Assembly: GCA_964519305.1 (NCBI GenBank)
Contig: CAZFHY010000006.1
Location: 1 to 64,000 of the forward strand
From: Candidatus Undinarchaeota archaeon
Lineage (GTDB): Archaea; SpSt-1190; JASMDC01
Length of the DNA stretch: 64,000 nucleotides
Reading direction: 5' to 3'
This document shows, piece after piece, positions 7,001-22,703 of the stretch. Each line of letters opens with the position of its first letter. Position 1 is the stretch's first letter. The notes under the pieces are model-generated. The model saw nothing but the letters and a program-made list of their open reading frames with translations. It was not told where the DNA came from and ran no database searches. The position numbers and the translations under genes are program-made.

Positions 7001-7058
7001 AGATTATACTAGTATCTAGGTGGTTATAAGTCTTATGGCATGTTTTAAGAAAAACAAC

Positions 7059-7079
7059 TGCCCCTGCCGGGATTTGAAC
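7059..7079 (-). repeat. 21-bp copy of the tRNA-Glu 3' end (att-like relic)
   Basis: TGCCCCTGCCGGGATTTGAAC vs TGCCCCCGCCGGGATTTGAAC at 7128-7148, 1 mismatch. Confidence 0.85.
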
Positions 7080-7127
7080 TTCTCAGTGTGAAGTGATGAT
7101 CTTCTATGTAGCAAGAAGGGGCTAAAG

Positions 7128-7202
7128 TGCCCCCGCCGGGATTTGAACCCGGGTAATTGGCTCGAAAGGCCAACATGATTGACCGGACTACACCACGGGG
7201 GC
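7128..7202 (-). tRNA. tRNA-Glu (TTC)
   Basis: GCCCCCGTGGTGTAGTCCGGTCAATCATGTTGGC-CTTTCGA-GCCAATTACCCGGGTTCAAATCCCGGCGGGGGCA cloverleaf; CCA not encoded. Confidence 0.96.
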
Positions 7203-8397: not shown

Positions 8398-9376
8398 ACA
8401 TCACCACCCCCCGGTCCAGCTCCTCTCTGAACTCCGATCCATCGAGCTCTTCCCCGGAGGACATGATCAGGGGTATCACCCGTATCCCCGTTCTATCGAG
8501 CGTGCTGCTGGCGATGGAAGCTACACGCGGTTCCAGCTTCCTGTCATCAATGAACACAGCGAGGTCCACATCGCTCTTCAGGCTTTCCTCGCCTCTGGCG
8601 ACACTACCGAAGAGGATGATCCTTCTTACCCCTTTCAACTCCTTGGCCCTCTTGGTGAAGAGCTCAGCTGCCAGTCTGTGCGGGGATGTTCTGATGTCGA
8701 GGACCTTCTTCACTTCCTCGAGGAACGGCGTCGAGCTGTTCAACTTGCATGCGACGGCCTGTCCGATTCGTTCCTTCATTACTACGCCGGCCGAATACAG
8801 GTCCTCGATAAAGCGCCAGACGGTGGAATATGGTCTGTTGGACAGCCTGGCAAGTTCCCTGATGGTAAAGGACCTTGAAGGATATTCGAGAAGCAGCATG
8901 ACGACCTCTTTGTGTTTGGATATCTTGGCCAGGGTCGTATGACGCAGGTATTTCCTGGCCGTCCCGTCTTCTCTTTTGTTCACAGGACTTCGTGATCCTG
9001 TGCGGATCGAGATCCGGGGCGTCCTCATCTCCGCCTTTACCGATAGATGGACCTTATTGTCCACTTCCATCAATCCGAGGCCGAGGCCTTTGATGATCGA
9101 CCGTATCCGGTCCGAGGAGCTGCTCGAAGGTAATGCAAGATAGGAGTAATGGGAACCCGCGGAATGATCGATGGCCCTGGCGATCCCTGAATGGATGTTA
9201 CCCATCCCCCCCTTAACTTCTATCATGATGATGCGGTCGTTCCTTGTGGCAACGATGTCGGGGATGCTACCTTTTACCTTCACCGTTCCCATTATCGAGT
9301 GGCCCGTGCTGACAAGATACTCCTGCACCATCTCCTTTACCTCTCGTTCTGATAAAGTAATATTATTGTTTTTCAT
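8381..9376 (-). CDS. PD-(D/E)XK nuclease-like + wHTH + minimal nucleotidyltransferase fusion
   Basis: IPDIVA...IEVKG; FTIRELARLS HTH; LFGSVARGE..SDVDL. Confidence 0.8.
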   Translation of the reverse strand: MKNNNITLSEREVKEMVQEYLVSTGHSIMGTVKVKGSIPDIVATRNDRIIMIEVKGGMGNIHSGIARAIDHSAGSHYSYLALPSSSSSDRIRSIIKGLGLGLMEVDNKVHLSVKAEMRTPRISIRTGSRSPVNKREDGTARKYLRHTTLAKISKHKEVVMLLLEYPSRSFTIRELARLSNRPYSTVWRFIEDLYSAGVVMKERIGQAVACKLNSSTPFLEEVKKVLDIRTSPHRLAAELFTKRAKELKGVRRIILFGSVARGEESLKSDVDLAVFIDDRKLEPRVASIASSTLDRTGIRVIPLIMSSGEELDGSEFREELDRGVVMYERAS

Positions 9377-9602: not shown

Positions 9603-11279
9603 TCACCCCACGCACGAGATTGCCGGGTTCCCGCCCGCAGTGTCCAGCGTCCCCGCGCTGCTCCATTCGCTCCCGTCCCAGGTCGAGGCCTTGATACTGC
9701 CTCCGTCGTACACCACCATGCACGAGCTCGATGTCGTGCAGAAGACGTCGGGACGTTCACCAGTGCCCACCGTCGCCGCCGTCCCCCACGCGGCGCCGTT
9801 CCACGAGGCGGCCTTGACGCTGCTGCCCTCCATCCACGCGGCCATGCAGAAGGACGTCGTGGGGCAGGACACGAAGGGGTACCGATCATCGGCCCCGTTG
9901 TCGGTCAGCGCGCTGTCCGTGCTCCAGGCGGCGCCGTTCCACGTGGCGTAATGGATCTCGTTGTCCCCCCCGTTGTTCCCGTCCCAGGTGGCCATGCAGA
10001 AGGACGTCGTGGGACAGGACAGGTCGGGATCGTAGTCGTGGAACGCATTGTCGTTCATGATGGTCGCAGAGCCCCACGATGCGCCGTTCCACGCGAAGTA
10101 CGCGATCTCGTAGTCCCCGCTGCCCGGGTGCTTGGACCATATCGCCATGCAGGAGCTCGACGAGGGACAGGATACGGAGGACCGGTAATCGTTGTACGAG
10201 TTGTCGGTCAGCGCGGTGACGGAGCTCCACGAGGCGCCGTTCCACGAGGCGGCCCTGACATCGTAGCCCGGCGAGGCCATGGCCTCCCAGGTGAGCATGC
10301 AGGAGCTCGAGGAGGGGCAGGAGAGGGAGGGGTACTGATCAACGACCGCGTTGTCGGTGAGCGCGGTCTCGGCGCTCCAGGCGGCGCCGTTCCACGCGGA
10401 GTACTTGATCTCCGCGCCCCCCGCGGTGTATCCACCCCAGGTGACCATGCAGGAGGATGACGAGGCGCAGGATAGGGAGGAAATAAGGTCATTGTACCCG
10501 TTGTCGCTCACCGCGGCGGCCGTGCTCCAGGAGGCGCCGTTCCACGTGGCGGACATGATCTCTTCGTCGTTCCCGTCGGACTTCCACCAGGTGGCCATGC
10601 AGAATCCCGGCCCGGTGCCCGTGCCCGACCCCGTCCCGGTCCCGCTGCCACTGCCCGTCCCCGACCCGCCGCCGCCCGACGTCGCTGCGACCCCGCCCTC
10701 GATCTTGCCCGAGCACACGGCCGACTCGCTGTGGCCGCCGATGGCGTTGAACACGTCGTACGAGATCTTGACCTTGGCACGGTACACGCTCATCGCCTTC
10801 AGGTCGAGCATCCCCCTGCCCACGTCCTCCATGGAGAAGGTGGCCATCTCGCCCTCGGTGACGTTCTGCTCCTGGCAGCCTGAGTCGGTGTCGTCCGCGG
10901 TGTTGTAGTAGTCGCAGTCGTACCCGCGCTCGGACCATGTCACATGGACGCCCTCGGGGTACTCCACGTCGATGCCCCTGATGCGCAGGGTCTCTCCGGC
11001 ACCGTTCTGCACCCGTAGCTGGAACACGCTCTCGCGCTCGGTCTCTGACGACCACACGGTCCAGAGCCCGGCCGTACCGGTCCCGCGGAACAGGTGGTCC
11101 TTGTAGTGGATGTGATGGAACCCCACGCAGCCCTTCTTCTGGTAGGTGGAGGGGTTGAGGATGCCCATGGCGTACAGGGACGCTCCTGCGATGACCAGGA
11201 TGACCAAAAGCCACCCGTAGGTCATCAGGAACTCCATCGCTGCCTGTGCACGACCTGTCTTGAGTCTCACGAGGGCCAC
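9603..11279 (-). CDS. Class III signal-peptide (pilin-like) surface protein with a C-terminal repeat/beta-propeller domain
   Basis: RAQAAMEFLMTYGWLLVILVIAG; G/S/T linker; about six CMxxW...WNGAxWS...TDN repeats. Confidence 0.85.
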   Translation of the reverse strand: MALVRLKTGRAQAAMEFLMTYGWLLVILVIAGASLYAMGILNPSTYQKKGCVGFHHIHYKDHLFRGTGTAGLWTVWSSETERESVFQLRVQNGAGETLRIRGIDVEYPEGVHVTWSERGYDCDYYNTADDTDSGCQEQNVTEGEMATFSMEDVGRGMLDLKAMSVYRAKVKISYDVFNAIGGHSESAVCSGKIEGGVAATSGGGGSGTGSGSGTGTGSGTGTGPGFCMATWWKSDGNDEEIMSATWNGASWSTAAAVSDNGYNDLISSLSCASSSSCMVTWGGYTAGGAEIKYSAWNGAAWSAETALTDNAVVDQYPSLSCPSSSSCMLTWEAMASPGYDVRAASWNGASWSSVTALTDNSYNDYRSSVSCPSSSSCMAIWSKHPGSGDYEIAYFAWNGASWGSATIMNDNAFHDYDPDLSCPTTSFCMATWDGNNGGDNEIHYATWNGAAWSTDSALTDNGADDRYPFVSCPTTSFCMAAWMEGSSVKAASWNGAAWGTAATVGTGERPDVFCTTSSSCMVVYDGGSIKASTWDGSEWSSAGTLDTAGGNPAISCVG

Positions 11280-11355
11280 CTTCTCGCGGTATATTCAAGT
11301 CCCTCGGGATATAAAACATTTGCGCGAAACGCTCGCGCAACGGTGCGGCTACCGG

Positions 11356-11420
11356 GGATTGTAGTTTAGTACAGTAACACACGGACGCCCCAACAGCCCC
11401 CCTGGACGCGAAAGGGGCCG
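11356..11420. repeat. Degenerate palindrome + GC hairpin repeat copy
   Basis: TTTAGTACAGTAACACACGGACGCCCC...TGGACGCGAAAGGGGC. Confidence 0.75.
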
Positions 11421-11478
11421 CAACGTCGGACATCGCACCCGTCGGGGACAAAAGACAGGTCCCTCGTGCCAGTCCCCC

Positions 11479-11718
11479 TCATTCAGGCCAATCAGGCCAA
11501 CTGGCCTCGCCGCAGTTATACCTCACGCAGCGTGGGTAGCTCGAGCCGTCCGCCATGGTCTGCTCGAGGCAGAGTTTCTCGCATGGGGTCTGGGGTTTGT
11601 TCGCGGGCGCCGGGCCGGTCGCAGCCTGCTGCTGCATCTGGTAGAGCGTGTACACGTTGACCAGCAGGGAAAGTGCCGCCACCAGGAGCACGATGCGCAG
11701 GAGGGTCCGATCGTCCAT
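11479..11718 (-). CDS. Small single-TM PAN-motif protein with a Cys-containing tail
   Basis: MDDRTLLRIVLLVAALSLLVNVYTLYQM...PAPANK; paralogous to the 21084-21625 peptides. Confidence 0.75.
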   Translation of the reverse strand: MDDRTLLRIVLLVAALSLLVNVYTLYQMQQQAATGPAPANKPQTPCEKLCLEQTMADGSSYPRCVRYNCGEASWPDWPE

Positions 11719-11778
11719 GCAGGGCCGAATGCCCAGTAGCTATTTAACAATAGCTAGAGCGGCCCCCCTGCCCCGCCC

Positions 11779-11810
11779 ACCTGCAGCCCCCCTGGACGCG
11801 TAAGGGGCAC
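11779..11810. repeat. GC hairpin repeat copy
   Basis: CTGCAGCCCCC...TGGACGCGTAAGGGGCAC. Confidence 0.7.
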
Positions 11811-11890
11811 TACTGTCACATGAATATGACAAAAAAAGGCCTATACCGTCCAGTCTATAAGACAGCTATATAAATAGAAAAAGACATAGT

Positions 11891-13225
11891 ATGTACATGG
11901 AGCTCATCGACCGGATCGCCCGGTGGAACCCGTGGTGGTCGGAGCGGTGTGTGGACCCCGCGCTCCTCGGCACGGAGCGGGAGGTGGAGGACATCCTCGC
12001 CGCGACCGGTGAGCTCAGGCATATCAAGGACATCATCGGGGTCAGGCGCTCGGGGAAGACGACGGTCCTCCTCCGGACGGTCCAGCGCGCCATCGACGCG
12101 GGCGTCGATCCGCGGGACATCGTGTTCCTCAACTTCGACGACGCCGTCCTTGCGGGAGCGACGTTCGAGGAGCTGGACGACGCGGTCTTCCAGCACAACC
12201 CCGACACGTCGCACATGCTCGTCGACGAGGTGCAGCAGAAAGCGGGATGGGAACGGTGGATGCGGACCCTCCACGACCTGAGGCGGCTCGAGCAGGTCTT
12301 CGTCTCCGGATCGTCCTCGTCCCTGCTCTCCCGGGAGCTCGGTCGCACCCTGACGGGAAGGCACGTCAGCTGTACCGTGCACCCCTTCTCGTTCAGGGAG
12401 TACCTCTGCCATATCGGATGGGATGACCTCTCCCCGGAGCGGTTGCGGGCGGAGAGGGACAGGGTGCAGCACCACCTGGCCCGGTACCTGGAGTACGGGG
12501 GGTTCCCGGAGACGGTGGGCAGGGGCGATCTCTCCAGGAGGATGCTGCTCCTGGACGTGTTCAAGGACATCATGTCCCGTGACGTCGCATCGCGGCACGA
12601 CGCCGAGGCGGACAAGCTCGAGCGCGTGGCGACCTGGCTTTTAACGAACGCCGGCAAGGAGTACACGCTCAGGAGCGTGTCGAGGGCGACGGGTGTGTCG
12701 GTGGCGAGCGTCGAGCGCTACATCTCCCATCTCAAGGAGGCGTTCCTGGTGCTCGAGCTCGAGCTCTTCACCTACAAGCTCAAGACCCGGTTCAGGGCGA
12801 ACAAGAAGGTCTACTGCATCGATACCGGCCTCCGCAACACCGCCTCGCTCCGCTTCTCGTCGGACATGGGGCGTCTTGCAGAGAACGCGCTCTTCCTGGA
12901 GCTGGTCAGGGACCCCTGGAGGAGGGTCTTCTACTGGAAGAGCAGGACGTCCGAGGTGGACTTCGTGGTAACCGACCGTGGGTACACCGTCGAGGAGCTC
13001 GTCCAGGTGTGCTGGGATGTGCGCGATGACGACACGCGGGCGCGGGAGGTGAAGGGTCTTCTCGAGGCGATGCGACTATTCGGGAAGGACGAGGGGACGA
13101 TCGTCACGCGTGACCGCGAGGCAGTGGAGGACGTGGGGGGGATGACCGTCCGCTTCGTACCGCTGTGGAAGCGGTTGCTGGTGCGCGCGAAGGAGAGCGG
13201 ACCGTCGACCGATGTTCGTAGGTAA
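11891..13225 (+). CDS. AAA+ ATPase, AAA_14/DUF4143 family
   Basis: GVRRSGKTT, VDEVQ, SGSSS, LTGR, YGGFPE, KVYCIDTG, SEVDFV. Confidence 0.92.
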   Translation: MYMELIDRIARWNPWWSERCVDPALLGTEREVEDILAATGELRHIKDIIGVRRSGKTTVLLRTVQRAIDAGVDPRDIVFLNFDDAVLAGATFEELDDAVFQHNPDTSHMLVDEVQQKAGWERWMRTLHDLRRLEQVFVSGSSSSLLSRELGRTLTGRHVSCTVHPFSFREYLCHIGWDDLSPERLRAERDRVQHHLARYLEYGGFPETVGRGDLSRRMLLLDVFKDIMSRDVASRHDAEADKLERVATWLLTNAGKEYTLRSVSRATGVSVASVERYISHLKEAFLVLELELFTYKLKTRFRANKKVYCIDTGLRNTASLRFSSDMGRLAENALFLELVRDPWRRVFYWKSRTSEVDFVVTDRGYTVEELVQVCWDVRDDDTRAREVKGLLEAMRLFGKDEGTIVTRDREAVEDVGGMTVRFVPLWKRLLVRAKESGPSTDVRR

Positions 13226-13266
13226 GGACGCTCCTGTCCGCCCCCATGTACGCGAAAGGGGCGCCC
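13226..13266. repeat. GC hairpin repeat copy
   Basis: GACGCTCCTGTCCGCCCCCATGTACGCGAAAGGGGCGCCC. Confidence 0.75.
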
Positions 13267-13321
13267 GTGTCAACGATACTTTCACCGGGACTACCGCTCG
13301 CGCAACGGTAGCGGCGACGAC

Positions 13322-13750
13322 CTACTCAGTAGCGGACGTCCCTTCCAAGAGCTCGAGCAGCCGGGGAGCGTGCTCGATGTAGAACGCCCTGATGTCCTCG
13401 GCGTCCCTGGCCGATACCGTCCTTCCGTAGTACTTGGAGGCGTTCCTGCGCCGGCGGTAGCGGTCGATCCGGGCGACGGTACCCTCGGACACCCCCTTCG
13501 TTCTCAGATAGGCGATGGCCGCCTCGTGCGAGTAGGTCTTGTACCCGTCCCGGGCCAGAAGGGCATCACAGACCTCGCGCAGGCAGTCGTAGAGGTTCTC
13601 GAACACCAGCATCGCGAACCTGCTAGTGTCGAGGGCCAGTGCCATCCCGCACCGCGACCCCACGTCCTTCTCAAGCGACCGGGCGAGCGATGGGTCCGAC
13701 GCCACTTTCCGGACCTTTCCCTGCCTGAGGTAGAGCTCGAAGTCCTTCAG
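13322..13750 (-). CDS. HEPN-domain protein; probable CTG start overlapping the MNT stop
   Basis: YDCLRE..DALL..DGYKTYSHEAAIAYL...RRRRNASKYYG; frame open back to (L)KDFELYLRQGKVRK. Confidence 0.8.
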   Translation of the reverse strand: MKDFELYLRQGKVRKVASDPSLARSLEKDVGSRCGMALALDTSRFAMLVFENLYDCLREVCDALLARDGYKTYSHEAAIAYLRTKGVSEGTVARIDRYRRRRNASKYYGRTVSARDAEDIRAFYIEHAPRLLELLEGTSATE

Positions 13751-14265
13751 AGAGACAGCCTCCCGTGGACGACGATGCCGTTGGCGAGGTTCTCGGTGAA
13801 CTCGTCCGACACAGTTCCCTTCTCGACGACCAGGAGGTGGACGCTCCTCTTGAGGACCGCTTCGAACGTCCCGAGGTCGGGATGCTCGTCCGACGAGGTG
13901 ACGACGGCGATGTCGATATCGCTCTCCGACCAGTCCTCGCCCCGGGAGTAGCTGCCGATGAGCACGACCGCCTCCGGATCGTCGTAGAACGCGACGAGGT
14001 GATCGACAAGACCGCTCGAGTAGAGCCTGCCGATGTTGTCGAGCTGCTTGGCGCGCCGGTACCTTGTCGAGCCGGTCCCGGCCCGTATCTCCACGAGGTG
14101 CTTCCGACGCTCCCTGGCCACGATGCCCTCTTCTTCCAGCCGGTCCACGACCGTGGATACGGTGTTGGGGTTCAGGCCGGTGGCGCGGGCCAGCTCCCGC
14201 AGGTGATACCGATATTCCGGTCTATCGAACAGTGCCTTGAGCACCTGCGATCTACTGTCTGACAT
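13747..14265 (-). CDS. wHTH + minimal nucleotidyltransferase antitoxin
   Basis: YHLRELARATGL HTH; LIGSYSRGEDWSESDIDIAV; start re-assigned to MSDSRSQ. Confidence 0.88.
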   Translation of the reverse strand: MSDSRSQVLKALFDRPEYRYHLRELARATGLNPNTVSTVVDRLEEEGIVARERRKHLVEIRAGTGSTRYRRAKQLDNIGRLYSSGLVDHLVAFYDDPEAVVLIGSYSRGEDWSESDIDIAVVTSSDEHPDLGTFEAVLKRSVHLLVVEKGTVSDEFTENLANGIVVHGRLSL

Positions 14266-14367
14266 ATTATACGCCTGTATAATATATTCTACAGTTGTAT
14301 AAATAATTATCCCTTCTCCTCCCGAGGTGCGGTCGTCACATACCAACCGTGGCCCCGTCCTTCCGCA

Positions 14368-14530
14368 CATCCCTACTGTATCATAGTGCACTGATAGTAT
14401 GAGAAGCTCTGTACACTCCCCGGCGGGGTAACATGAACGTATAAGCCGGACACAGAAAATTACTGTACTTTAGTTCAGTAACACACGGACGCTCCTGTAC
14501 GCCACCATGGACGCTGTCGGGGCACCGACG
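14368..14530. repeat. Intergenic repeat copy A (first 121 bp near-identical to 15470-15590, then GC hairpin)
   Basis: Direct sequence comparison, 1 mismatch; palindrome at 14460-14482. Confidence 0.92.
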
Positions 14531-14552
14531 TCAGGATAACGGATTCTCGTCC

Positions 14553-15041
14553 CTATCCGAGCAAGGAGCGCATCTCGCTCTTTCGGAACCTGAACGAATC
14601 CTCGCTCTCAAGCTCCCTGACGATCCGCTCCATTTCAGGGCGCTCCACGAATCCAGCATCGTGACATGCCAGCAGGAACGAGAACGTGTCTATCACATTA
14701 ACACCGTGCGACCGTGCGGCCTTCATCGCCGCCTTGTCGTTCATGAGCAGGGACGCATCCCTTTCGACGGCCAACGAGATCGCTTCCCGCTCACCCTCTC
14801 CCAGCGGAAGGTTCGTGATGCTCTTGTTCGCCCTTTGCACGAGGAGCGGTCTCTTCATGGTGGCTTCCTCCTCGGAGAACGCCAGAAGGTCATGGTGCTC
14901 CTCAAAGAAGTCCGTCCTGTCGATCTCCTTCAGGACGGCCAGTGGTATGATGACGGACGTGCATCGGAAGAAGGCCAGGATAAGCTCCAGTCTGTTGATC
15001 TTGATGAACGTGCTGAGAAAATCCGTATCGATAACGATCAC
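14553..15041 (-). CDS. PIN-domain toxin (DUF3368-like)
   Basis: IVIDTDFL, LGEGEREAISLA, LLMNDKAA. Confidence 0.88.
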   Translation of the reverse strand: MIVIDTDFLSTFIKINRLELILAFFRCTSVIIPLAVLKEIDRTDFFEEHHDLLAFSEEEATMKRPLLVQRANKSITNLPLGEGEREAISLAVERDASLLMNDKAAMKAARSHGVNVIDTFSFLLACHDAGFVERPEMERIVRELESEDSFRFRKSEMRSLLG

Positions 15042-15385
15042 TTCTTGGACCTTCCCGCGACGGTCATCGCGTGCCTTACCATCTCCTCCATCTCCGCGGC
15101 CGATCCGCCCACCTTTCTCGCGATCCCCCGTTCATGGAGCATGTCCTTCATCTCCTCGATGCTCACGTCGGCTATCTCCGAGGCCTTCCCCAGCGAGATC
15201 TCCTCCTTGTCGTAGAGCGCGCAGGCCAGGGCGGACCTGACGTCCCGCCTCGCCGCCAGTAGGGTGCGGATCGCATCGCGGATGAACTCGCTCTTGTTAT
15301 CGTAGTAGCCCGTGCTCGCAACGACGTCCAGTTCCTTCTTCATCAGCGGGGGGAGCGTGAAGCTCACGGTCATGCTTGCCATCAT
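15038..15385 (-). CDS. RHH + UPF0175 antitoxin
   Basis: GYYDNKSEFIRDAIR; ISLGKASEIA; operator-like CAATACT-AC-AGTATTG just upstream. Confidence 0.85.
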   Translation of the reverse strand: MMASMTVSFTLPPLMKKELDVVASTGYYDNKSEFIRDAIRTLLAARRDVRSALACALYDKEEISLGKASEIADVSIEEMKDMLHERGIARKVGGSAAEMEEMVRHAMTVAGRSKK

Positions 15386-15469
15386 ATCACCAATACTACA
15401 GTATTGTTGTGGTAATATATTAACCTGTCGACCACCGTCCGATGGTGTCGGTGTCCCCTGTCTGGCGCG

Positions 15470-15630
15470 CATCCCTACTGTATCATAGTGCACTGATAGT
15501 ATGAGAAGCTCTGTACACTCCCCGGCGGGGTAACATGAACGTATAAGCCGGACACAGAAAATTACTGTACTTTAGTACAGTAACACACGGTCGCTTCTGC
15601 AGCCACCACGGACGCGGAAGGGGCACCCGT
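15470..15630. repeat. Intergenic repeat copy B
   Basis: 121-bp match to 14368-14488; palindrome 15562-15584; GGACGCGGAAGGGGCAC hairpin. Confidence 0.92.
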
Positions 15631-15642
15631 GACGACGGACCT

Positions 15643-17235
15643 CTACGATATGGTGAACTTCTGCACCCGGTCGTTGCCTATTTCGACCACGTACGCGACA
15701 CTGTTCCCCGAGACCACCACGTCGTTGGGGCCGTTGAGCTCGCCGTCGCCGCTGCCGGATGCGCCCGTCCTCCCGGACCCGGGGTCGTGCCAGCCGGTCC
15801 CGCCCTGGTCGTCCTTTCCCCACCAGCCCAGGAAGGTACCGCTCGTGTCGAACACCTGGATGCGGTGATTGCCCCGGTCCGCCACGTACACACGGTCGCT
15901 GGTGTCGATATGGATGCCCCACGGGGCGGAGAACTCGCCGTCGCCGGTGCCTGAGGCGCCGCCCGTCCTCCCGGACCCGGGCGCGTGCCAGCCGGTCCCG
16001 CCCTGGTCGTCCTTGCCCCACCAGCCCAGGAAGGTGCCGTCGGACGTGAACTTCTGGACACGGTGGGTACTTCCCACCACGTACACGTTGCCGCTGGAGT
16101 CGACGGCGATGCCCAGGGGGAGAGAGAACTGGCCGTCGCCGGTGCCCGACGAGCCCCACTTGATGACGTAGACGCCCGCAGTGGTGAGTTTCTGGATGCG
16201 ATTGTTATACCGATCGGTCACGTACACGTTGCCGCTGCCGTCGAGGACCACGTCGGTGGGCCCGTTCAGATCACCGTCACCGCTTCCCTCAGCGCCCCAC
16301 GTCCGCACGAAGGCGCCAGCGGAGGTGAACACCTGGACGCGATCGTTCCTGATATCCGCCACGTACACGTCCCCGTTCCCGTCGACGTCGAGCCCGAAGG
16401 CACCCTCGAACTCGCCGTTGCCGCTACCCTGCGAGCCCCATTTCCGCAGGAAGGTGCCGTCGGAGTCGAACACCTGGATGCGCTCGTTATCATAGTCGCC
16501 CACGTGCACGTTCCCGCTCCCGTCCAGGGCCAGGTAGAGCGGCGAATCGAACTGACCGTCGCCCGTACCGGTCGAGCCCCACTTGCCCGCGTAGGTCGCC
16601 GACGAACCGCTGCCCGTACCACTGCCGCTGCCCGAGGTGCTTGCGCTCCCGCCCTCGATCTTTCCCGAGCACACCGCCACCTCGGAGTGGTCGGCCAGCG
16701 CGTTGAACGCGTCGAATGTCACCTTGACCTTCATGCGGTACACGGTCCCGTGGCGCAGGTCGAGCGTGCCTCGGCCCACGTCCTCCATGGACAGTGTCGT
16801 TACCTCGGCCTCGGACACGTTCTGCTCCTGGCATCCTGAGTCGGTGTCGTCGGCGGTGTTGTAGTAGTCGCAGTCATAGCCCCGTTCGGACCAGGTGACG
16901 TGCACGCCCACAGGGTACTCCACGTCCACGCCCCTGATACGCAGGGTCTCTCCGGCGCCGTTCTGCACCCGCAGCTGGAACACGCTCTCGCGCTCGGTCT
17001 CACTTGACCACACGGTCCACAGCCCGGTCTCTCCGGTGCCCCGGAACTTGTGGTCCTTGTAGTGGACCTTCTCGAAGCCCACGCACCCGGTCTTCATGTA
17101 GGTGGAGGGGCTGAGGATGCCCATGGCGTACAGTGCAGCGCCCGCTATGACAAGGATGACCAAAAGCCACCCGTAGCTCATGAGGAACTCCATCGCTGCC
17201 TGTGCGCGCCTGTCCTGTGCTCTCAATACTGCCAC
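15643..17235 (-). CDS. Class III signal-peptide (pilin-like) protein with a C-terminal NHL-repeat beta-propeller
   Basis: N-terminal ~195 aa paralogous to 9603..11279; GDGQF..P.GIAVD..GNVYV.D..N.RIQ NHL repeats. Confidence 0.88.
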   Translation of the reverse strand: MAVLRAQDRRAQAAMEFLMSYGWLLVILVIAGAALYAMGILSPSTYMKTGCVGFEKVHYKDHKFRGTGETGLWTVWSSETERESVFQLRVQNGAGETLRIRGVDVEYPVGVHVTWSERGYDCDYYNTADDTDSGCQEQNVSEAEVTTLSMEDVGRGTLDLRHGTVYRMKVKVTFDAFNALADHSEVAVCSGKIEGGSASTSGSGSGTGSGSSATYAGKWGSTGTGDGQFDSPLYLALDGSGNVHVGDYDNERIQVFDSDGTFLRKWGSQGSGNGEFEGAFGLDVDGNGDVYVADIRNDRVQVFTSAGAFVRTWGAEGSGDGDLNGPTDVVLDGSGNVYVTDRYNNRIQKLTTAGVYVIKWGSSGTGDGQFSLPLGIAVDSSGNVYVVGSTHRVQKFTSDGTFLGWWGKDDQGGTGWHAPGSGRTGGASGTGDGEFSAPWGIHIDTSDRVYVADRGNHRIQVFDTSGTFLGWWGKDDQGGTGWHDPGSGRTGASGSGDGELNGPNDVVVSGNSVAYVVEIGNDRVQKFTIS

Positions 17236-17315
17236 CGGTTCTCGCAGGGATGGTTAGGCGCTCGGGGTTTAAAACACTTGCTTGAAACGGTCGCGCAACG
17301 GTGGGTGGACCGACG

Positions 17316-17669
17316 TCAGGTCTCGCGACAGTCGGGCGTACCGTCCCCGTCCGTGTCGACGGTGTCGTCGTTACCGGGACAGATGTCGCACCCGTCAGGG
17401 ATGCTGTCACCGTCCAGGTCGAGATAGTCGTCATGACCCGGGCAGACGTCGCACGCGTCAGGTACGCTGTCACCGTCCGTGTCCATCCCGTCAGAGAACT
17501 GATCGATGCACGCGTCACGCCAGGAGTTCGCGGGCGCCACCGTCCCGTCGATGTCCGGGGGCGTCATCTGGACGTACGCGACGGCCACCACGAACGCCAC
17601 CAGGAACAGTCCCATGAGCGCGTAAACGAGATGGAGGTGGTCATCCGCGGCGTCGATGGTGGCGTCCAT
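17316..17669 (-). CDS. Single-TM PAN-motif protein with thrombospondin type-3-like Ca-binding repeats
   Basis: TM helix, VAPANSW, three DxDGDxxPDxC repeats. Confidence 0.78.
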   Translation of the reverse strand: MDATIDAADDHLHLVYALMGLFLVAFVVAVAYVQMTPPDIDGTVAPANSWRDACIDQFSDGMDTDGDSVPDACDVCPGHDDYLDLDGDSIPDGCDICPGNDDTVDTDGDGTPDCRET

Positions 17670-17723
17670 GGGCGATGAAAGGGGCCACAGTTATTTATGG
17701 GTATTGATGGCTGCCCGCCAGCC

Positions 17724-19817
17724 CTACGGTACCACGAACTCGGTCATCTTGGTCCCCGCCACGTCGCCGAAGTTCTCGGCGTTACGCATCCGCACATGCG
17801 ATCCGACGACCTTGCTGTACACGGTGGTGTACAGGTCCGAGATGTAGATGTTCTGGTTGCGCGACACCGTCATGATCACGTTGTGCGTGAAGTCGTCGGC
17901 CAACCACGCCTTCACCTCGCCGTCATAGTTGGCGCCGAACGACTGCTCGTTCAAAGCCGCACCGGTGAAGTACAGCACGCCGGGCGTGTCGATCCTGAGC
18001 CCGACGCTCTCGCCGAAGCACACCTCTACCATGATGAACATCTTGCGGAACCGTCCCCGCTTGTGCATGGTGTCGGTGATCTCAGCGATCTCTGTCGCCG
18101 AGAGAGGTCCCCCGTGGTCGAAGGGGATGGCGCCGGGCATGCCGTGGTCCACTATGAACAGGAACACGTTGCTCGACTCGTCGCTCTCCACCACCACTGG
18201 CGTCGCCTCGCTCTTCTCGCCGAGCAGCACCGCCCTGAGGTTCTCTACTGTGACCTGCTCGCCCACGTAGTCCACCGTCACGTCCTTGCGCACGTTGGGG
18301 CCCAGCGGGATGTGCCGGACAACGCCCTGCAGCGGGTTCTCGGAAAGGTACGGGATGTCGTCGATCAAAAAGAGGATGATGCGGTCGTCGGGCACGCCGT
18401 TGCTGCGCAACAGCCGGTACATGGCCAGGGCGTCGGCCTGGTGCCGGTAGTTCTTCCAGTCCTTGCTGGTGGCGATGATCACGGTCCACAGGTCGCCCCG
18501 GGCGCCCACCGACGGGCCAGCGGTCGTGCCGTCGAACACCGAGGCAGTTTCCATGCTGGTCCCGGCCAGGGCCATGGACGCTTTGTTGCTCCCGCCGAGC
18601 ACGTCGCCCGAGCTGAGCGTCGCTGCCGTGTGGAACGCGCCGTCGGTAACCTCCCACCGGGCGTAGAAGGCGCCCAAGGGCTCCACACCATGGAGCCGGT
18701 CGAAGGTCAGCGGCCCCGAGGCGCCGGCGATGTCGGGACGTCCGCCATCGACGATCAGAGAGATACCCTCGGTCACCTGGTCCCAGCCGACATGACGGCC
18801 CCGTCCGGCGAGCACGGTCCGCAACGAGTCCTCGGGCCATTCCCAGCCCCGCTTGTGCTGGTGGCGGGCCAGGGCGTACACCGACATGAGGAACGCGTCG
18901 TAGGTGGCGGCGCCATAGGTGTTCGGCTCCTCACCGAACTTCTCGAGGTACGCCTCGGCGAAACCCGCCGTCGGGTCCATGGCGGGCGCAGTGCCCTCCA
19001 GTCCGTTGGCGGCGTCACCCAGCGTCTCGACAAGGTGCGGTGCCTGGGCCGCGTCGGCGAAGAACGGACGGACGTCGCTGCCGGTGGCGGCGAGGTCGGC
19101 GGCTATGGTCGCCGCCTCCCCGGGCAGCGCCACGATCAGCAGGTACTCAGGATCGCCCGCGGTCGCCGTGGCGATCTCGGTGGCATAGCTGTCCTGCCCG
19201 CGTTCGAACGATGACATGCCCGTGAAGTTCACACCCATCTCCAGGGCGAAGAACGGCGTCCAGTCAAGGAACGTCTTGCCGTACCCGGTGTCCTCGTACA
19301 ACAGGCCGATCCGCTCGACACCCCGCAGCTTCAGGATGTGGAGCATGGTCTTGATCTGGGCCACGTCCCCCACGCACGTTCGCCAGAAGTACTTCTTGCG
19401 GCCGAACGCACGGCCCAGGTCGGCCGACGTCGCAGTGGGCGTGATCAGCAGCTTGCGGTGCCGGACGAAAAGAGGTGCCAGGTCGAACGACTCGTCACTG
19501 GTCACCGGGCCGATAACGACCTTTATGTCGTCATCAGCGAGCATCTCACCCGCCAGCGTTCGCAGATCGCCGACGGCAAGGTCGCGGTACACCAGCTCCA
19601 CCGGCCGCCCGCCGATGCCGCCAGCGTCGTTCACCATGGCCACACCCCAGTCCAGTGTCTTGTCGAGGCCCATGTCGATGGGCCCGGTGAGATGGAGCAG
19701 CACGCCGATCCGGTACGGTCGCGCGTCACGGAACCGGAGGTACCCCAGGCCTGCCGAGACAACGATGATCGTGATGGTCAGGTAGAGCAGTGCCCGGTGT
19801 CGCCGGTCGCGTGCCAT
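17724..19817 (-). CDS. Membrane-anchored branched-chain-amino-acid-type solute-binding domain fused to a C13 (legumain/GPI8) cysteine peptidase
   Basis: VNDAGGIGGRPVELV binding domain; WKNYRHQAD, IVDHG, VEVCFGES catalytic His/Cys motifs. Confidence 0.88.
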   Translation of the reverse strand: MARDRRHRALLYLTITIIVVSAGLGYLRFRDARPYRIGVLLHLTGPIDMGLDKTLDWGVAMVNDAGGIGGRPVELVYRDLAVGDLRTLAGEMLADDDIKVVIGPVTSDESFDLAPLFVRHRKLLITPTATSADLGRAFGRKKYFWRTCVGDVAQIKTMLHILKLRGVERIGLLYEDTGYGKTFLDWTPFFALEMGVNFTGMSSFERGQDSYATEIATATAGDPEYLLIVALPGEAATIAADLAATGSDVRPFFADAAQAPHLVETLGDAANGLEGTAPAMDPTAGFAEAYLEKFGEEPNTYGAATYDAFLMSVYALARHQHKRGWEWPEDSLRTVLAGRGRHVGWDQVTEGISLIVDGGRPDIAGASGPLTFDRLHGVEPLGAFYARWEVTDGAFHTAATLSSGDVLGGSNKASMALAGTSMETASVFDGTTAGPSVGARGDLWTVIIATSKDWKNYRHQADALAMYRLLRSNGVPDDRIILFLIDDIPYLSENPLQGVVRHIPLGPNVRKDVTVDYVGEQVTVENLRAVLLGEKSEATPVVVESDESSNVFLFIVDHGMPGAIPFDHGGPLSATEIAEITDTMHKRGRFRKMFIMVEVCFGESVGLRIDTPGVLYFTGAALNEQSFGANYDGEVKAWLADDFTHNVIMTVSRNQNIYISDLYTTVYSKVVGSHVRMRNAENFGDVAGTKMTEFVVP

Positions 19818-19820
19818 GGT

Positions 19821-20990
19821 TCAGTCCTTCTTCTCCTTGTCGCCGCCGTACCCGCGGCCGTAGGCGCCGCGGCGGGCCATCCGGGCCATCTTGGCGGCCT
19901 CCTGGACGCCCATCACCTGCTTGCCCAGTTCGTATGAGGTGAACCCGGCCACAAGTACCGACAGCACCACCATCGCGGCGATTCCGTACATGAGCGTATC
20001 GGCTGTTGTGAAGTCGTCGTAGTACGCCGACACCCAGATAACCCACTCCCAGTCCTCGAACCACGTGACCGCGGCGATCTTCAGCCGTGCCTCCTTCTCG
20101 CCGGGATTCTTCCAGGGGTAGGTTATGAAGTCCACGCCGTGGCCCGCGTCCCGGGCCTTGCGCACGCCCTCCTGGATGAAGTGGTTACCGGCAGTGTCCT
20201 GCGACATGGATATGTCCTCGCCGTCGCGGACCCGGTCCTTGGAGACGATGTACCTGCCGTCCTTGGAGATGATGGCGATGTACCCGCTTCGGCCGATCAC
20301 CTGCCGGGCGATGAGGTCCTTCACCTCTTCCTGCACCCGGCGGCGGTAGTCCATATCGACCACGTCGTCGTAGTACGCACCGACACCGACGACCCAGCCC
20401 GGGCCCGGGAAGTGGAGCATGGCGGCCAGCTTCTCCCGCGGCACGGTCTCGCCGGGATTGAGCCACAAGTACGAGTGGTAGCCGATATCGCCGTCGCCCA
20501 GGGTGCGACCGATACCCACGAGGTCCTGGATGACGAGGTTCCCGTCGGAGTCCACGGTCGCCCAGATGTTCTCGCCATCCCGCGTCCTGCGCTTGGAGAG
20601 GACGTAGTTGCCGTCGTAGTCGAGGATCCACACGTACCCGGTCCGGCCCACGGTATGGCGGGCCAGTCGGTCCAGCAGGTCCTCACGCTCGTCGTCGGGG
20701 AGGGTGCCGTTGTGCTCGTCGAGCATGAGGTCGATGAGCTCGTACACGTACTTGACCTGCTCGGTGATGATCCCCTTGGCAAGTATCTTGGCATCCTCTT
20801 CCTGGTGCCGTATGTTATGGTCATAGGCCTCGAGGAGTATGCGCCAGTCGATGGCCCGGTCCATGAGACGTTCCTGGACGCTGTGGTCCACGACGTCGTT
20901 CACCGTGCCGTAGGCGGTGTAGCCGATGATGAGCCCGGGGCCGGCGACGGCCAGCACCACGAGCAGTACGAGCTCCGTGCGGATCTCCAT
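19821..20990 (-). CDS. Cache-domain membrane sensor without a cytoplasmic output domain
   Basis: Two TM helices flanking repeated G..GY.WI.D..G.Y...Y.W.NPGE...K...W.W.. Cache_2-like units; short basic tail. Confidence 0.82.
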   Translation of the reverse strand: MEIRTELVLLVVLAVAGPGLIIGYTAYGTVNDVVDHSVQERLMDRAIDWRILLEAYDHNIRHQEEDAKILAKGIITEQVKYVYELIDLMLDEHNGTLPDDEREDLLDRLARHTVGRTGYVWILDYDGNYVLSKRRTRDGENIWATVDSDGNLVIQDLVGIGRTLGDGDIGYHSYLWLNPGETVPREKLAAMLHFPGPGWVVGVGAYYDDVVDMDYRRRVQEEVKDLIARQVIGRSGYIAIISKDGRYIVSKDRVRDGEDISMSQDTAGNHFIQEGVRKARDAGHGVDFITYPWKNPGEKEARLKIAAVTWFEDWEWVIWVSAYYDDFTTADTLMYGIAAMVVLSVLVAGFTSYELGKQVMGVQEAAKMARMARRGAYGRGYGGDKEKKD

Positions 20991-21083
20991 GATGGGATGT
21001 CTAGAAATACGCGAGCTATAAATGGTTTAGCGCAACGGCCGCCCGGGCGAGGGCATTTAAAGTTATTCCACTGAGAGGGTGCC

Positions 21084-21329
21084 ATGGCCGAGAAGAAGAA
21101 GGCTGAGAAGAAGGAAAAGGTCGAGGAGAAAGAGGAGAAGATCGAGAAGAAGGAGAAGGTGGACGTCGTGGAGGCCGCTCCCGAAGAGGAAGGGCTCACC
21201 GAGGGCGACAGGAAGCTCCTGTACGCCATCCTTGCGATCTCGCTGCTCTCGCTGCTCATCAGCCTCTACGTGATGTACACTCTCCAGAACCCGCCCGTTG
21301 CCGCGCTCACACCGCCGGCCAACTGGTAA
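21084..21329 (+). CDS. Small single-TM PAN-motif protein 1 (K/E-rich N-terminus)
   Basis: DRKLLYAILAISLLSLLISLYVMYTLQ...PPANW. Confidence 0.8.
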   Translation: MAEKKKAEKKEKVEEKEEKIEKKEKVDVVEAAPEEEGLTEGDRKLLYAILAISLLSLLISLYVMYTLQNPPVAALTPPANW

Positions 21330-21333
21330 GGAC

Positions 21334-21465
21334 GTGGACGACCGCAGGCTCCTGCACGCCATCCTGGCGATCAGCCTGCTCTCGCTGCTGGTCAGCCTGT
21401 ACGTGCTGTACACGCTCAAGAGCGGGCAGGGAGTGGCGATAGCGCTGCCAGCGAACATGGCCTGA
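21334..21465 (+). CDS. Small single-TM PAN-motif protein 2 (43 aa, not in ORF track)
   Basis: GTG start; MDDRRLLHAILAISLLSLLVSLYVLYTLKSGQGVAIALPANMA. Confidence 0.75.
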   Translation: MDDRRLLHAILAISLLSLLVSLYVLYTLKSGQGVAIALPANMA

Positions 21466-21481
21466 TTAGCGTTGTGAATAC

Positions 21482-21625
21482 ATGAAAGACCGCAAGCTCC
21501 TGCACGCCATCCTGGCGATCAGCCTGCTCTCGCTCCTGGTCGGCCTTTACGTGCTGTACACGCTCAAGACCGGGCAGGTCGCGGAGCTCGTGCCCCCGGC
21601 GAATCCCTGGAACAAATTTCATTAA
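21482..21625 (+). CDS. Small single-TM PAN-motif protein 3 (47 aa, not in ORF track)
   Basis: MKDRKLLHAILAISLLSLLVGLYVLYTLKTGQVAELVPPANPWNKFH. Confidence 0.78.
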   Translation: MKDRKLLHAILAISLLSLLVGLYVLYTLKTGQVAELVPPANPWNKFH

Positions 21626-21738: not shown

Positions 21739-22176
21739 CTATGGCTCCAGCGCCTTCTCGACCAAGGGACCGAGTTCGCTCATGGCAGTCTCGAGGGGGC
21801 GGATGGTGACCTTGGCGACCTCTAGGTCCAGGCGCTTTCCATAGTAGACGAGCGCGTTCCGCTTGTACCTCCCGTCGTCGAACGCCCGGAACAGATCGTC
21901 CCGATCCAGGACATCCCGCAGGTAGTACCCGAGACAGAGGTGGTTGGCCACGTTGAATCCCTTGGCGACGACAAGGGCGTGGACGGTCTCCAACAGGGAC
22001 GTGTAGTACCCCTCGAACACAAAGCTGATGGTGTCCCGTGTCATCGGCCTCGTCGTAACGAACGCCACGCGCGCTCGTGCCGTCTCGAGAAGTGAGCGTG
22101 CCTTCTGTGCATCCGGTGTCACCCGCCGCGATGTTGCCTGGCCGATACAGTCGTCCCATGTCGACGGCCGCATCAT
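21739..22176 (-). CDS. HEPN-domain protein
   Basis: GYYTSLLETVHAL...NHLCLGYYL...RYKRNALVYYG. Confidence 0.82.
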   Translation of the reverse strand: MMRPSTWDDCIGQATSRRVTPDAQKARSLLETARARVAFVTTRPMTRDTISFVFEGYYTSLLETVHALVVAKGFNVANHLCLGYYLRDVLDRDDLFRAFDDGRYKRNALVYYGKRLDLEVAKVTIRPLETAMSELGPLVEKALEP

Positions 22177-22703
22177 AGCACCTCCATGAATCCGTTGAGA
22201 GTGATGCCATTGATGATATTGTTGGCAAGGCGCTCGTTCTCCACGGACCGGAGGTTCGCATACACGAAGGGTTGGATCCTACGACCCAGTCGTTCCTCGA
22301 AAGACGTCAGGTCACTGATGTTCTTATGAGGTGTCTCGACATAGAGGTCGATATCGCTGGTCTCGATGTCCTCTCCGCGCGCATAGGAGCCGAACACTAC
22401 CAGTGTCGGATTGTCGTACATGTGACGGAGGTGCTCGGTCAGTCCAGATTCATGAAGTGAGCGGAGGTTGTACAACGACTTTCCCAGCAGATAGCTCTTG
22501 GACGTCCTGTCGGCGATGAAGAAGGTGGTGTTCCCGATGATCTCCTTCCCGAGGAACCCCTCGTCCACCAGTTCGCCCGTATAGCGGATGACTGACGGTA
22601 GCGCGAGCCCGAGCTCCCGCTCCAGCTGACGGACGCGGTACCTTCCGGTGGGATTCTGGAAGAAGTGCTCGAGTAGACGCTGCTTGACGTTCCGCTGCCG
22701 CAT
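22173..22703 (-). CDS. wHTH + minimal nucleotidyltransferase antitoxin
   Basis: YRVRQLERELGL; VFGSYARGEDIETSDIDL. Confidence 0.88.
   Translation of the reverse strand: MRQRNVKQRLLEHFFQNPTGRYRVRQLERELGLALPSVIRYTGELVDEGFLGKEIIGNTTFFIADRTSKSYLLGKSLYNLRSLHESGLTEHLRHMYDNPTLVVFGSYARGEDIETSDIDLYVETPHKNISDLTSFEERLGRRIQPFVYANLRSVENERLANNIINGITLNGFMEVL

Follow-up and report, generated by a model that had tools for sequence, protein, structure and literature searches.

Gene organization of the locus

The window analyzed here is a stretch of 64,000 nucleotides (contig CAZFHY010000006.1, positions 1 to 64,000 of the forward strand) from a Candidatus Undinarchaeota archaeon. The genes and features at the locus are as follows.

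9603..11279, minus strand: protein with a class III signal, paralogous to 15643..17235 (N-domains 80% identical); repeat C-domain, no Pfam match
11479..11718, minus strand: leader-cargo gene, 79 aa; Asn40 at 11599-11601; 39-aa cargo; 6 kb from the enzyme gene
15643..17235, minus strand: protein with a class III signal (read from the sequence) and an NHL propeller (NHL repeats by Pfam)
17316..17669, minus strand: leader-cargo gene directly downstream of the enzyme gene; Asn48 at 17526-17528
17724..19817, minus strand: candidate processing enzyme of 697 aa, comprising a membrane helix at the N-terminus, a type I binding domain (LivJ/LivK-like) and a legumain-type C13 peptidase
19821..20990, minus strand: stand-alone double-Cache membrane protein with two helices (sCache_2, E 9.8e-46; dCache_2, E 7.2e-42)
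21084..21329, plus strand: leader gene whose N-terminus carries a charged extension; Asn80 at 21321-21323; one-residue tail (Trp)
21334..21465, plus strand: leader gene, 43 aa, GTG start; Asn41 at 21454-21456; two-residue tail
21482..21625, plus strand: leader gene, 47 aa; Asn41 at 21602-21604, followed by Pro; the 6-residue tail contains a second P-x-N

The five small membrane proteins that the earlier note described at this locus were recovered as open reading frames (ORFs). In each of them P-A-N comes after a single hydrophobic helix, and a hexamer gene model scored each as coding. From the Tyr near the helix end to the Asn, the distances are 15, 17, 16, 16, and 16 residues, and the tails past the Asn comprise 39 aa (4 Cys), 69 aa (6 Cys), 1, 2, and 6 aa, respectively. 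The tails differ from one another as that note had claimed, but the parts preceding the motif, which it also took as unrelated, are those of paralogues of a single leader family. A Pfam search was blank for four of the five; the remaining match was to the acidic, TSP3-like cargo of 17316..17669 (TSP_3, E 0.0012, weak and under the cut-off). In P0184, a relative of the latter protein, this leader is joined to an IglC-fold cargo, and two relatives of 21084..21329 (P0163 and P0178) bear aromatic tails of 6 and 4 residues, respectively. Tails of one or two residues are odd products for an endopeptidase.

The Cache gene lies upstream of the enzyme gene at a distance of 3 bases, and the two are therefore probably co-transcribed. 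Pfam recognized no signalling output domain in its product, which may be an accessory sensor. No tblastn homologue of this gene was found in the 80 related loci compared in this study (49 of clade A and 31 of its sister clade B), while other stand-alone Cache-family proteins adjoin the enzyme in three of them (L046, L047, and L055).

The two class III-signal genes were examined for a tie to pilus display, as proposed in the earlier note. Two of the 30 leader genes of this genome have a pilin-like gene at a distance of no more than 200 bases, compared with approximately 1% of all genes within 1 kb as counted with a narrow search pattern, which would fit leaders and enzyme serving the display of the adjoining type IV pilin-like adhesins. 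On the other hand, the pilin-like family occupies 14 places in this genome, 12 of which have no leader neighbour, and it is present in G001, a genome of the same genus (98% complete) in which the enzyme, the leaders, and the gene block are all missing. Furthermore, no homologue of the family was found in the 80 related loci, and each pilin-like gene at the locus has a TATA-like box of its own. Neither the enzyme nor the leaders proved to be consistently linked to class III-signal genes; the tie to an archaeal type IV pilus is not supported, and the display reading is largely refuted and extremely improbable.

The LivJ-like/C13 fusion enzyme

The product of 17724..19817 matched Peripla_BP_6 (PF13458; E 2.5e-31, 110 bits) and Peptidase_C13 (PF01650; E 1.8e-50). 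The latter match scored 172 bits against a cut-off of 22.8, which places the protein in the C13 (legumain) family, and the C13 domain is closer in sequence to legumain than to GPI8. The binding domain is of the HAAT/LivJ type (match to 3td9, E 1.9e-15; Foldseek TM 0.80), is nearest to branched-chain amino-acid binding proteins, and is fused in all 38 aligned homologues.

By alignment to human legumain, the S1 pocket consists of Arg458, His459, Asp557, Glu598, Ser626, and Asp641, and the catalytic residues are His558 (in His558-Gly559) and Cys600, both invariant in 38/38 homologues. The equivalents of legumain Arg44, His45, His148, and Cys189 were found in all 38 homologues, that of Ser216 in 34, and that of Asp231 in 37. 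The Asn specificity of legumain is set by these pocket residues (PMC4357240). Judged from the alignment and its conservation, the enzyme keeps the legumain catalytic pair and an intact Asn pocket, which supports the reading of the earlier note in this respect. The AF2 model (pLDDT 90.4) has the caspase-haemoglobinase fold and superposes on 4awb with a TM of 0.92 and an rmsd of 1.8. The protein ends approximately 20 residues past the Pfam match and has no C-terminal pro-domain. We thus rejected the eukaryotic prolegumain type, which is characterized by an activation peptide and an LSAM domain.

The plant ligase-activity positions were transferred to the human legumain numbering by a residue mapping that, in part, we take to be correct. 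LAD1 is Gly in 28 of the 38 homologues (Gly628 in the window enzyme) and Ala in the other 10, and LAD2 of the window enzyme is Met560-Pro561. Peptide asparaginyl ligases (PALs) have a bulky LAD1, with Gly-Ala or Ala-X at LAD2 (10.1101/2022.09.26.509423). The enzyme was thus not assigned to the PAL type, and Gly or Ala at LAD1 means that the plant determinants point to hydrolysis.

The leader family in this genome

The leader family comprises 30 paralogues on 10 contigs of this archaeal genome, with a conserved membrane leader ending in Pro-x-Asn. The family motif is P-x-N rather than P-A-N: x is Ala in 20 of the 30 members, and a further Pro precedes the motif in 22. Asn conservation in relatives had been named in the earlier note as a check, and both Pro and Asn turned out to be invariant across the 29 aligned leaders while the rest of the linker varies. 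All 30 members have P-x-N within residues 27-60 (shuffle mean 5.5, maximum 14; 2000 shuffles), a contrast that is inflated because 18 seeds were chosen for PAN and the motif lies inside the profile. The motif is encoded with every one of the four codons for Pro and the two for Asn, implying that selection acts on the protein. Basic residues are equally frequent on either side of the helix, so that the topology would rest on the cargo.

Outside the leader family, P-x-N after N-terminal helices is not enriched in this genome (19/564 against 19.3 expected), and the difference in P-x-N frequency between small ORFs here (22/179) and in a sample of G001 (1/30) was not significant (p 0.21). No NCBIfam model, including sorting-signal models, matched the 30 members above cut-off, and the leader was accordingly not assigned to any known type of sorting signal or RiPP leader. 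The conserved Asn was in an N-x-S/T sequon in 0/29, 5/61, 3/114, and 2/37 cases in four partly overlapping sets; the counts of 0/29 and 3/114 exclude N-glycosylation as its role.

Linkage of the enzyme and P-x-N across lineages

The co-occurrence of the motif and the C13 fusion predicted by the earlier note held in clade A, to which the window enzyme belongs. Of the 88 small ORFs with one helix at these loci, 38 carry P-x-N (500 shuffles gave 8.8 on average and at most 17), although these 38 ORFs are not independent and Methanoregula-like loci supply most of them. The corresponding counts were 1/48 in clade B (one of the 31 loci) and 1/66 in control genomes without the fusion (1.02 Mb), so that the motif is rare where the fusion is absent, a situation in which its abundance would have spoken against the note. 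Large anchored ORFs showed no enrichment (6/63 against 4/77). A small P-x-N ORF was present in 18 of the 49 clade A loci, and at 14 of these 18 the nearest one is less than 450 bases away from the enzyme; many of the 31 loci showing none are short contigs. In this genome, 25 of the 30 leaders are far from the enzyme gene. P-x-Q is also frequent (24/88 clade A ORFs), being part of the Methanoregula-like leader.

The leaders beside clade A enzymes are of different kinds in at least five lineages, drawn from unrelated archaea and bacteria (the window, methanogen, Actinomycetota, L061, and L065 types). The methanogen leaders gave no Pfam match above E 0.003, and a profile comparison with the window family reached just 43% probability. 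At five loci, Yip1 proteins adjoining the enzyme end in a helix, a linker, and P-x-N plus 2-3 residues. P0002 (enzyme 84% identical) and P0163, the orthologue of 21084..21329, agree in the length of the longest contig (61673), an agreement that is circumstantial as a sign of kept synteny.

Clade B fusions have the same pocket without P-x-N neighbours, and the enzyme can therefore exist without these substrates. This, together with a binding domain nearest to branched-chain amino-acid binders and Bmp binding-protein genes matching in 27 of the 80 loci, would suit a nutritional surface peptidase that cuts only incidentally while the cargoes remain tethered. Such a role leaves the invariant Asn in a disordered linker and the enrichment confined to clade A unexplained, and Pfam found no ABC permease gene beside the window enzyme gene; we regard it as very unlikely.

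The clade B enzymes are also consistent with P-x-N not being the site of this enzyme at all: the motif could be a structural cap, the site of another protease, or a place of Asn self-cleavage, with surface genes merely co-located in variable islands. The gene block indeed lies in a variable region behind tRNA-Glu and an integrase, amid toxin-antitoxin-like genes. Moreover, Pro directly follows the Asn in 2 of the 30 members and in P0130, and Asn-Pro bonds are poor legumain substrates. However, it is only next to clade A enzymes that the differing anchors of at least five lineages have arrived at the same motif, which is also found after lipoboxes and after the final helix of Yip1. The residue before the Asn can be Glu, Leu, Asp, Pro, or Lys, which signal peptidase I would refuse at -1, and use as a sequon is excluded. 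We thus consider this explanation quite unlikely.

Cargo behind the leaders

Cargo is mostly unrelated between members and often Cys-rich, with cores from 1 to >300 residues. The 26 cargoes of at least 25 aa fell into 19 unrelated groups; 20 of the 26 have four or more Cys, the number being even in 17 of these 20. Recurrent cargoes include Hcp (PF05638) and an IglC-fold tube protein, the latter matching IglC (PDB 2QWU) in a structure comparison (Z 15.9, rmsd 2.7 over 176 residues). This IglC-fold cargo is found behind four anchor types, lipoproteins included, with P-x-N at the start of the domain in each case, and two of its genes are separated from the enzyme gene by 25 and 34 bases. In three anchored IglC-fold proteins, the Asn aligns with the start Met of an anchor-less homologue; fusion at the start codon alone would likewise place the Asn at the native start of the cargo, a point in favour of P-x-N not being a site of this enzyme. 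The two sheath families searched, PF05943 and PF04984, were not found in this genome (G000; 99.8% complete), the controls of the search having matched, and type VI secretion or a contractile injection system was accordingly rejected.

Proposed mechanism

We propose, as the probable reading of the gene arrangement and the pocket, that a surface asparaginyl endopeptidase sheds cargo from P-x-N anchors. Precursors would be inserted with the N-terminus inside, the uncleaved helix (or a lipobox in some bacteria) serving as an anchor, followed by a short flexible linker ending in P-x-N, and the cargo would fold on the outer side, in many cases forming disulfides. The C13 enzyme, tethered to that side of the membrane, would accommodate the Asn in an S1 pocket of the legumain type and hydrolyse the next peptide bond, which would release the cargo with a newly made, defined N-terminus. 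Behind the leader, cargo is exchanged freely, the kinds being short aromatic peptides, disulfide-rich miniproteins, and Hcp- and IglC-fold tube proteins, and the fused LivJ-like domain may replace the missing pro-domain as a ligand-dependent control. No such anchor-release route by an Asn-cutting protease was found described for microbes in the literature.

The enzyme could instead be a transpeptidase, a "reverse sortase" that cuts after the Asn and passes the membrane-anchored half to an amine (the N-terminus of another protein, a lipid head group, or a bound amino acid); the helix would then be the product, a transferable anchor, and short tails the leaving groups. Three lineages, and Yip1 proteins as well, repeatedly show tails of 1-3 residues, and among methanogen members of at most 86 aa, 55/117 have tails of at most 13 residues. 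The C13 family includes ligases and GPI8, Asp147 is present in the window enzyme, and Gly/Ser are commonest after the Asn in the methanogen family (50/117); Gly at P1' favours transpeptidation by human legumain (PMC13052201). In contrast, LAD1 (Gly/Ala) and LAD2 (Met-Pro) are not of the ligase types, although plant rules may not transfer, and the Asp147 position varies, with Asp in 14 of the 38 homologues. No conserved acceptor gene was seen, and neither the window nor the methanogen leaders have a conserved hydrophobic P2', which is crucial for transpeptidation according to PMC8106488. By analogy with the plant determinants, ligation is less likely than hydrolysis, and we hold the transpeptidase to be unlikely.

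Release by hydrolysis may be part of a larger scheme, which as a whole is speculative and rather doubtful. In it, archaea and bacteria would have passed on, through gene transfer, a shedding platform gated by a ligand, and a single surface legumain would set free an entire library of cassettes when triggered. The smallest products, which are single amino acids and short aromatic peptides, would be signals and may feed back on the binding domain of the enzyme; disulfide-rich miniproteins would be released, and freed Hcp/IglC-fold subunits would assemble outside the cell into tubes that have no sheath. For the shortest precursors, ligation may take the place of hydrolysis and join the anchor to other molecules of the surface, as a prokaryotic counterpart of GPI transamidation with reversed polarity.

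If true, the proposal would assign a physiological role and definite substrates to the legumains of prokaryotes, and anchor-linker-P-x-N would be a new export-and-release signal marking hundreds of unannotated small proteins. It would also reveal, in archaea, a group in which little is known of such systems, a library of disulfide-rich peptides and of candidate signalling peptides, and, in exported T6SS-tube folds without a sheath, a new use of the fold. A pro-domain-free legumain working at the cell surface could serve as an Asn-specific tool enzyme.

Comparison with known systems

The enzyme shares the fold, the His-Cys pair, and the S1 pocket with legumain (MEROPS C13; human LGMN, PDB 4AW9 and 4AWB), but it is prokaryotic, membrane-tethered, fused to a LivJ-like domain, free of the C-terminal activation peptide/LSAM, and linked to dedicated precursor genes. 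Sortase, exosortase, archaeosortase, rhombosortase, and GPI transamidase likewise combine a short motif by a membrane helix, many substrates, and one dedicated peptidase. In these systems and GPI8, unlike here, the anchor does not come first and the cargo last; GPI transamidase has a C-terminal omega-site signal, whereas the leader substrates have N-terminal anchors, so that cleavage would release rather than attach.

In the maturation of cyclotides and other precursor peptides by plant AEP/PAL (PMC8106488), a conserved leader, a variable Cys-rich core, and C13 processing at Asn are also found. Here, in contrast, the Asn closes a leader that is a membrane anchor, the core of widely varying length comes after it, and neither a conserved P2' leaving group nor ligase determinants are present. 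Polymorphic toxins share a constant N-terminal trafficking part, variable C-terminal domains, and proteolytic release, including by caspase-like domains (PMC3482391); the words 'legumain' and 'C13' are absent from the first 300,000 of the 357,715 characters of its main text. Unlike in those toxins, the peptidase would act in trans, none of the cargoes gave a match to a toxin family, and immunity genes were not recognised. Cargo folds are like those of the T6SS tube proteins Hcp (by Pfam) and IglC (by structure), but they are fused to export anchors with a P-x-N site and no sheath gene was found in the genome.

Type V pilins, finally, are anchored precursors cut by a surface clan CD protease (Arg-gingipain, C25), and their release permits polymerisation (PMC5954841). 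They differ from the present system in the residue cut (Arg, not Asn), in the anchors (helices as well as lipids here), in the cargo folds, and in the many tiny peptides found here. The tube-fold cargoes invite, by analogy, the type V pilin logic.

The gene block and its host

The host is an uncultured archaeon with a genome of 3.63 Mb (59.6% G+C, 99.8% complete). The genomes of 15 other members of the class are of 0.6-1.2 Mb, while that of a same-genus relative, G001, is of 3.8 Mb. All of the genes described in the earlier note were found where it had placed them:

9603-11279, gene with a class III (pilin-like) signal
11479-11718, leader gene
15643-17235, gene with a class III signal
17316-17669, leader gene
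17724-19817 (-), LivJ-like/C13 (legumain-like) fusion, the enzyme
19821-20990 (-), Cache gene
21084-21329, leader gene
21334-21465, leader gene
21482-21625, leader gene

The region in which the block lies is variable and follows a tRNA-Glu gene and an integrase. In G001, the flanking genes are collinear on one contig, but leader genes, enzyme and Cache gene are all missing from that place, and no match to the leader family was found genome-wide. A tyrosine integrase with a zinc ribbon adjoining tRNA-Glu, together with type I restriction-modification genes (window 5699-7202 and 54-4047), likely represents an integrated element. Toxin-antitoxin-like genes, namely pairs of a nucleotidyltransferase and a small partner plus an RHH/UPF0175 pair, are interspersed among the system genes (8017-9376, 13322-14391, 14553-15493 and 21739-22703). 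The window also encodes three very large proteins:

32554-38532, 1992 aa, NlpC/P60
40292-47788, 2498 aa, laminin G
53365-56244, 959 aa, Dickkopf-like Cys-rich repeats

A C13 enzyme with an intact Asn pocket

In the enzyme, a member of C13 with 697 aa, a basic stretch and one N-terminal helix are followed by a LivJ/LivK-like and a C13 domain; the C-terminal pro-domain is missing. Its structure model (pLDDT 90.4) fits legumain at a TM of 0.92. The catalytic His and Cys, as well as the S1 residues to which PMC4357240 ascribes the Asn specificity of legumain, are present and conserved over the 38 homologues aligned. A second C13-like gene of this genome (C16) was ruled out as the processing enzyme; it has neither the helix nor Arg44/His45, and its orthologue occurs in the leader-less G001.

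We detected 179 full-length homologues among 8000 scored, the named ones being from Methanoregula, Methanospirillum, Thermoplasmata, Chloroflexota, Coriobacteriaceae and Armatimonadota. This patchy taxonomic spread suggests gene transfer of the enzyme. A scan of species genomes with the single enzyme query yielded one distant Prevotella locus and nothing else, and a search of viral contigs one distant C13. Plasmids gave matches to the binding domain only. Searches of the ESM Atlas returned low-score matches or none. No fusion was found in 400 other archaeal genomes, seven of which matched the binding domain only, although this blank says little as no Methanoregula-like genome was seen in the sample. 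In one related locus (L072:7404-9347 and 10271-12214), the fusion is duplicated in tandem along with its small P-x-N gene.

The leader family

A six-frame scan for a helix followed by PAN and two rounds of profile search, with two weak additional matches excluded, defined a family of 30 paralogues on 10 contigs of this genome, beyond which the score falls sharply. The five window proteins are members. The leader consists of 38-49 residues (57 in one member). It has an acidic start and a helix in which a Ser and an Asn are conserved, and its variable linker ends in the invariant P-x-N. The codons at the Pro and Asn vary, and thus selection acts on the protein; a mobile cassette at the DNA level was considered and rejected. 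None of the 30 proteins reached the cut-off of an NCBIfam model.

The tail after the Asn ranges from 1 to 305 residues. The 26 cargoes of at least 25 aa fell into 19 unrelated groups; 20 of them contain at least four Cys, and the number of Cys is even in 17 of these 20. When 1.84 billion representatives were searched with the family profile, 64 matches were returned, 43 of them from outside this genome. The Asn, on the conservation of which the earlier note had made its proposal depend, is retained in these homologues, as P-x-N was kept in 42 of the 43, albeit the profile itself favors the motif. In two of the relatives, P0161 (PF05184, E 2.8e-11) and P0180, the cargo is saposin-like, which is unusual for a fold in archaea.

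Further small membrane proteins of this genome have different helices followed by PP-x-N (L014:2575-3614, +; L013:4030-4494, -) and are probably additional substrates. Among them are three tandem paralogues on contig C1, two of which bear the motif.

Linkage of the enzyme and P-x-N genes across lineages

We analyzed 80 loci encoding homologous fusions, namely 79 out of 586 confirmed metagenome matches and one genome locus. A quick tree of the C13 domains, computed without bootstrap, separated clade A, which contains the window enzyme, from its sister clade B (SH-aLRT 100); the partial loci L087, L094, L095, L103 and L105 stood outside the tree and were assigned to group A by identity. ORFs and helices were called by simple scripts, with some false ORFs included, and we counted small single-helix ORFs with P-x-N 4-30 residues after the helix. 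In clade A, the motif was found in 38 of 88 such small ORFs (shuffle mean 8.8, maximum 17 of 500) and in 18 of 49 loci, these ORFs being non-independent and amounting to about five lineages as independent units. The corresponding figures were 1/48 ORFs and 1/31 loci in clade B, and 1/66 ORFs in eight genomes without the fusion (1.02 Mb sampled). The co-occurrence of the Asn motif with the C13 fusion, which the earlier note had proposed to check, was thus borne out. No more than 450 bases separated the enzyme from the nearest P-x-N ORF in 14 of these 18 loci; the remaining 31 clade A loci had no small P-x-N ORF. P-x-N was enriched neither in the large anchored ORFs of clade A loci nor, in this genome, among the 564 anchored proteins outside the leader family.

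The leaders differ among lineages. A Methanoregula-type leader gave 444 matches of at most 86 aa, with P-x-N in 117 of the 120 matches listed, and aligned with the window leader family at a profile probability of 43% only. Its search in 400 other archaeal genomes gave one weak helix-only match, a blank that again says little in a sample where no Methanoregula-like genome was seen. Further types were found in Actinomycetota and at loci L061, L065 and L053. The leaders of L047, L053 and L065 share a helix-end pattern with the window leader and may be its remote kin.

Proposed processing after the P-x-N Asn

Altogether, the C13 fusion and the P-x-N leaders are likely enzyme and substrates. As the simplest account, we propose that the membrane-tethered enzyme would hydrolyze, on the outer face, the bond after the P-x-N Asn, and that this would free the cargo from its membrane leader; we regard such hydrolysis as reasonably probable. 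The Asn avoids glycosylation sequons, the behavior expected of a cleavage site, and N-glycosylation was rejected as its role. Signal peptidase I was also considered as the cleaver and rejected. In silico, human legumain accepts Ala, Ser, Asp or Thr as the P2 residue, and Pro is among those tolerated at P3 (PMC13052201). This is consistent with P-x-N yet leaves the invariant Pro unexplained, which must be peculiar to this clade.

In two of the 30 members, Pro directly follows the leader Asn, although the window case has a second P-x-N three residues on. These members and the recurring tails of 1-3 residues speak against uniform release of cargo. Also on the negative side are the missing enrichment of P-x-N in the two sets of anchored proteins described above and the 31 clade A loci that have no small P-x-N ORF. 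Such short tails suit small signals or, equally, the leaving groups of a ligation, in which the enzyme would join rather than hydrolyze after the Asn. Nevertheless, we consider ligation unlikely, as the enzyme lacks the plant ligase determinants (10.1101/2022.09.26.509423) and the substrates have no conserved P2' residue (PMC8106488). The protease acting on PAN|X substrates in the earlier note is partly supported, namely by the motif-enzyme linkage and the intact Asn pocket, with coupling less likely than hydrolysis, and without the tie to pili (see below).

In sortase-type systems, the polarity is opposite to that of the present leader system. Precursor maturation by plant asparaginyl endopeptidases works alike, as does the release of type V pilins by gingipains (PMC5954841), albeit the present system is a member of neither. 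No description of this system was found in the literature searched, which consisted mostly of open texts and included PMC4357240, PMC8106488, PMC13052201, PMC3482391, PMC5954841 and 10.1101/2022.09.26.509423.

The motif behind unrelated anchors

P-x-N does not depend on the kind of anchor. One cargo of 190 aa, with no Pfam match, was found behind four anchors, always with P-x-N at the domain start. In this genome, it sits behind an unrelated helix and behind the family leader; in the relative P0184, it follows the same leader that carries TSP3-like cargo at window 17316. It also occurs in two bacterial lipoproteins, the genes of which lie 34 (L082) and 25 (L059) bases from clade A enzymes. In three of the proteins, the Asn takes the position of the start Met in an anchor-less plasmid homologue. 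The model of the cargo (pLDDT 91.4) matched IglC best (Z 15.9), followed by Hcp proteins (Z 8-9). The fold search alone gave IglC, as a PDB search with the sequence profile had no match, and no such cargo was found in viral contigs. Two cargoes of this genome are true Hcp (PF05638), and another such cargo was found in L053, where 137 bases separate it from the enzyme. No anchored Hcp fusion was found in G001, and no sheath gene (VipB and phage-sheath families) in the host genome.

Anchored IglC-fold and Hcp proteins
L005:4985-5686 (-), IglC-fold, predicted exported membrane-anchored protein, no Pfam model for family
L009:10811-11566 (+), as L005:4985-5686
L082:1233-1889 (+), as L005:4985-5686
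L059:10038-11072 (-), as L005:4985-5686
L012:4620-5306 (-), Hcp (PF05638) behind membrane anchor with P-x-N
L005:14983-16029 (-), as L012:4620-5306
L053:858-1364 (+), as L012:4620-5306

In five methanogen loci (L051, L069, L073, L075 and L077), Yip1 proteins adjoining the C13 gene end with the last helix, a linker, P-x-N and 2-3 residues.

Sensor and pilin-like neighbors

The enzyme invariably carries the binding domain, and control by a ligand is thus plausible. The window Cache gene had no tblastn homologue in the 80 related loci at E 1e-4. Stand-alone Cache proteins adjoin three clade A enzymes (Pfam scan of 45 neighbor proteins, drawn in part from a list of 106), and genes for Bmp/PnrA-like binding proteins matched in 27 of the 80 loci, in both clades and often abutting the fusion (e.g., L049:10016-11029). 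A second ligand-binding neighbor is therefore common but interchangeable.

The link to pilus display suggested in the earlier note did not hold. The class III-signal family occurs at 14 places in the genome, only two of which are beside leader genes, persists in G001, which has no leaders, and had no homologue in the 80 related loci; the pilin-like genes also have their own TATA-like boxes. The two window members (9603-11279 and 15643-17235) belong to a family in which the N-domain of 190 aa is conserved and the C-terminal domains, either propellers or repeats, are swapped.
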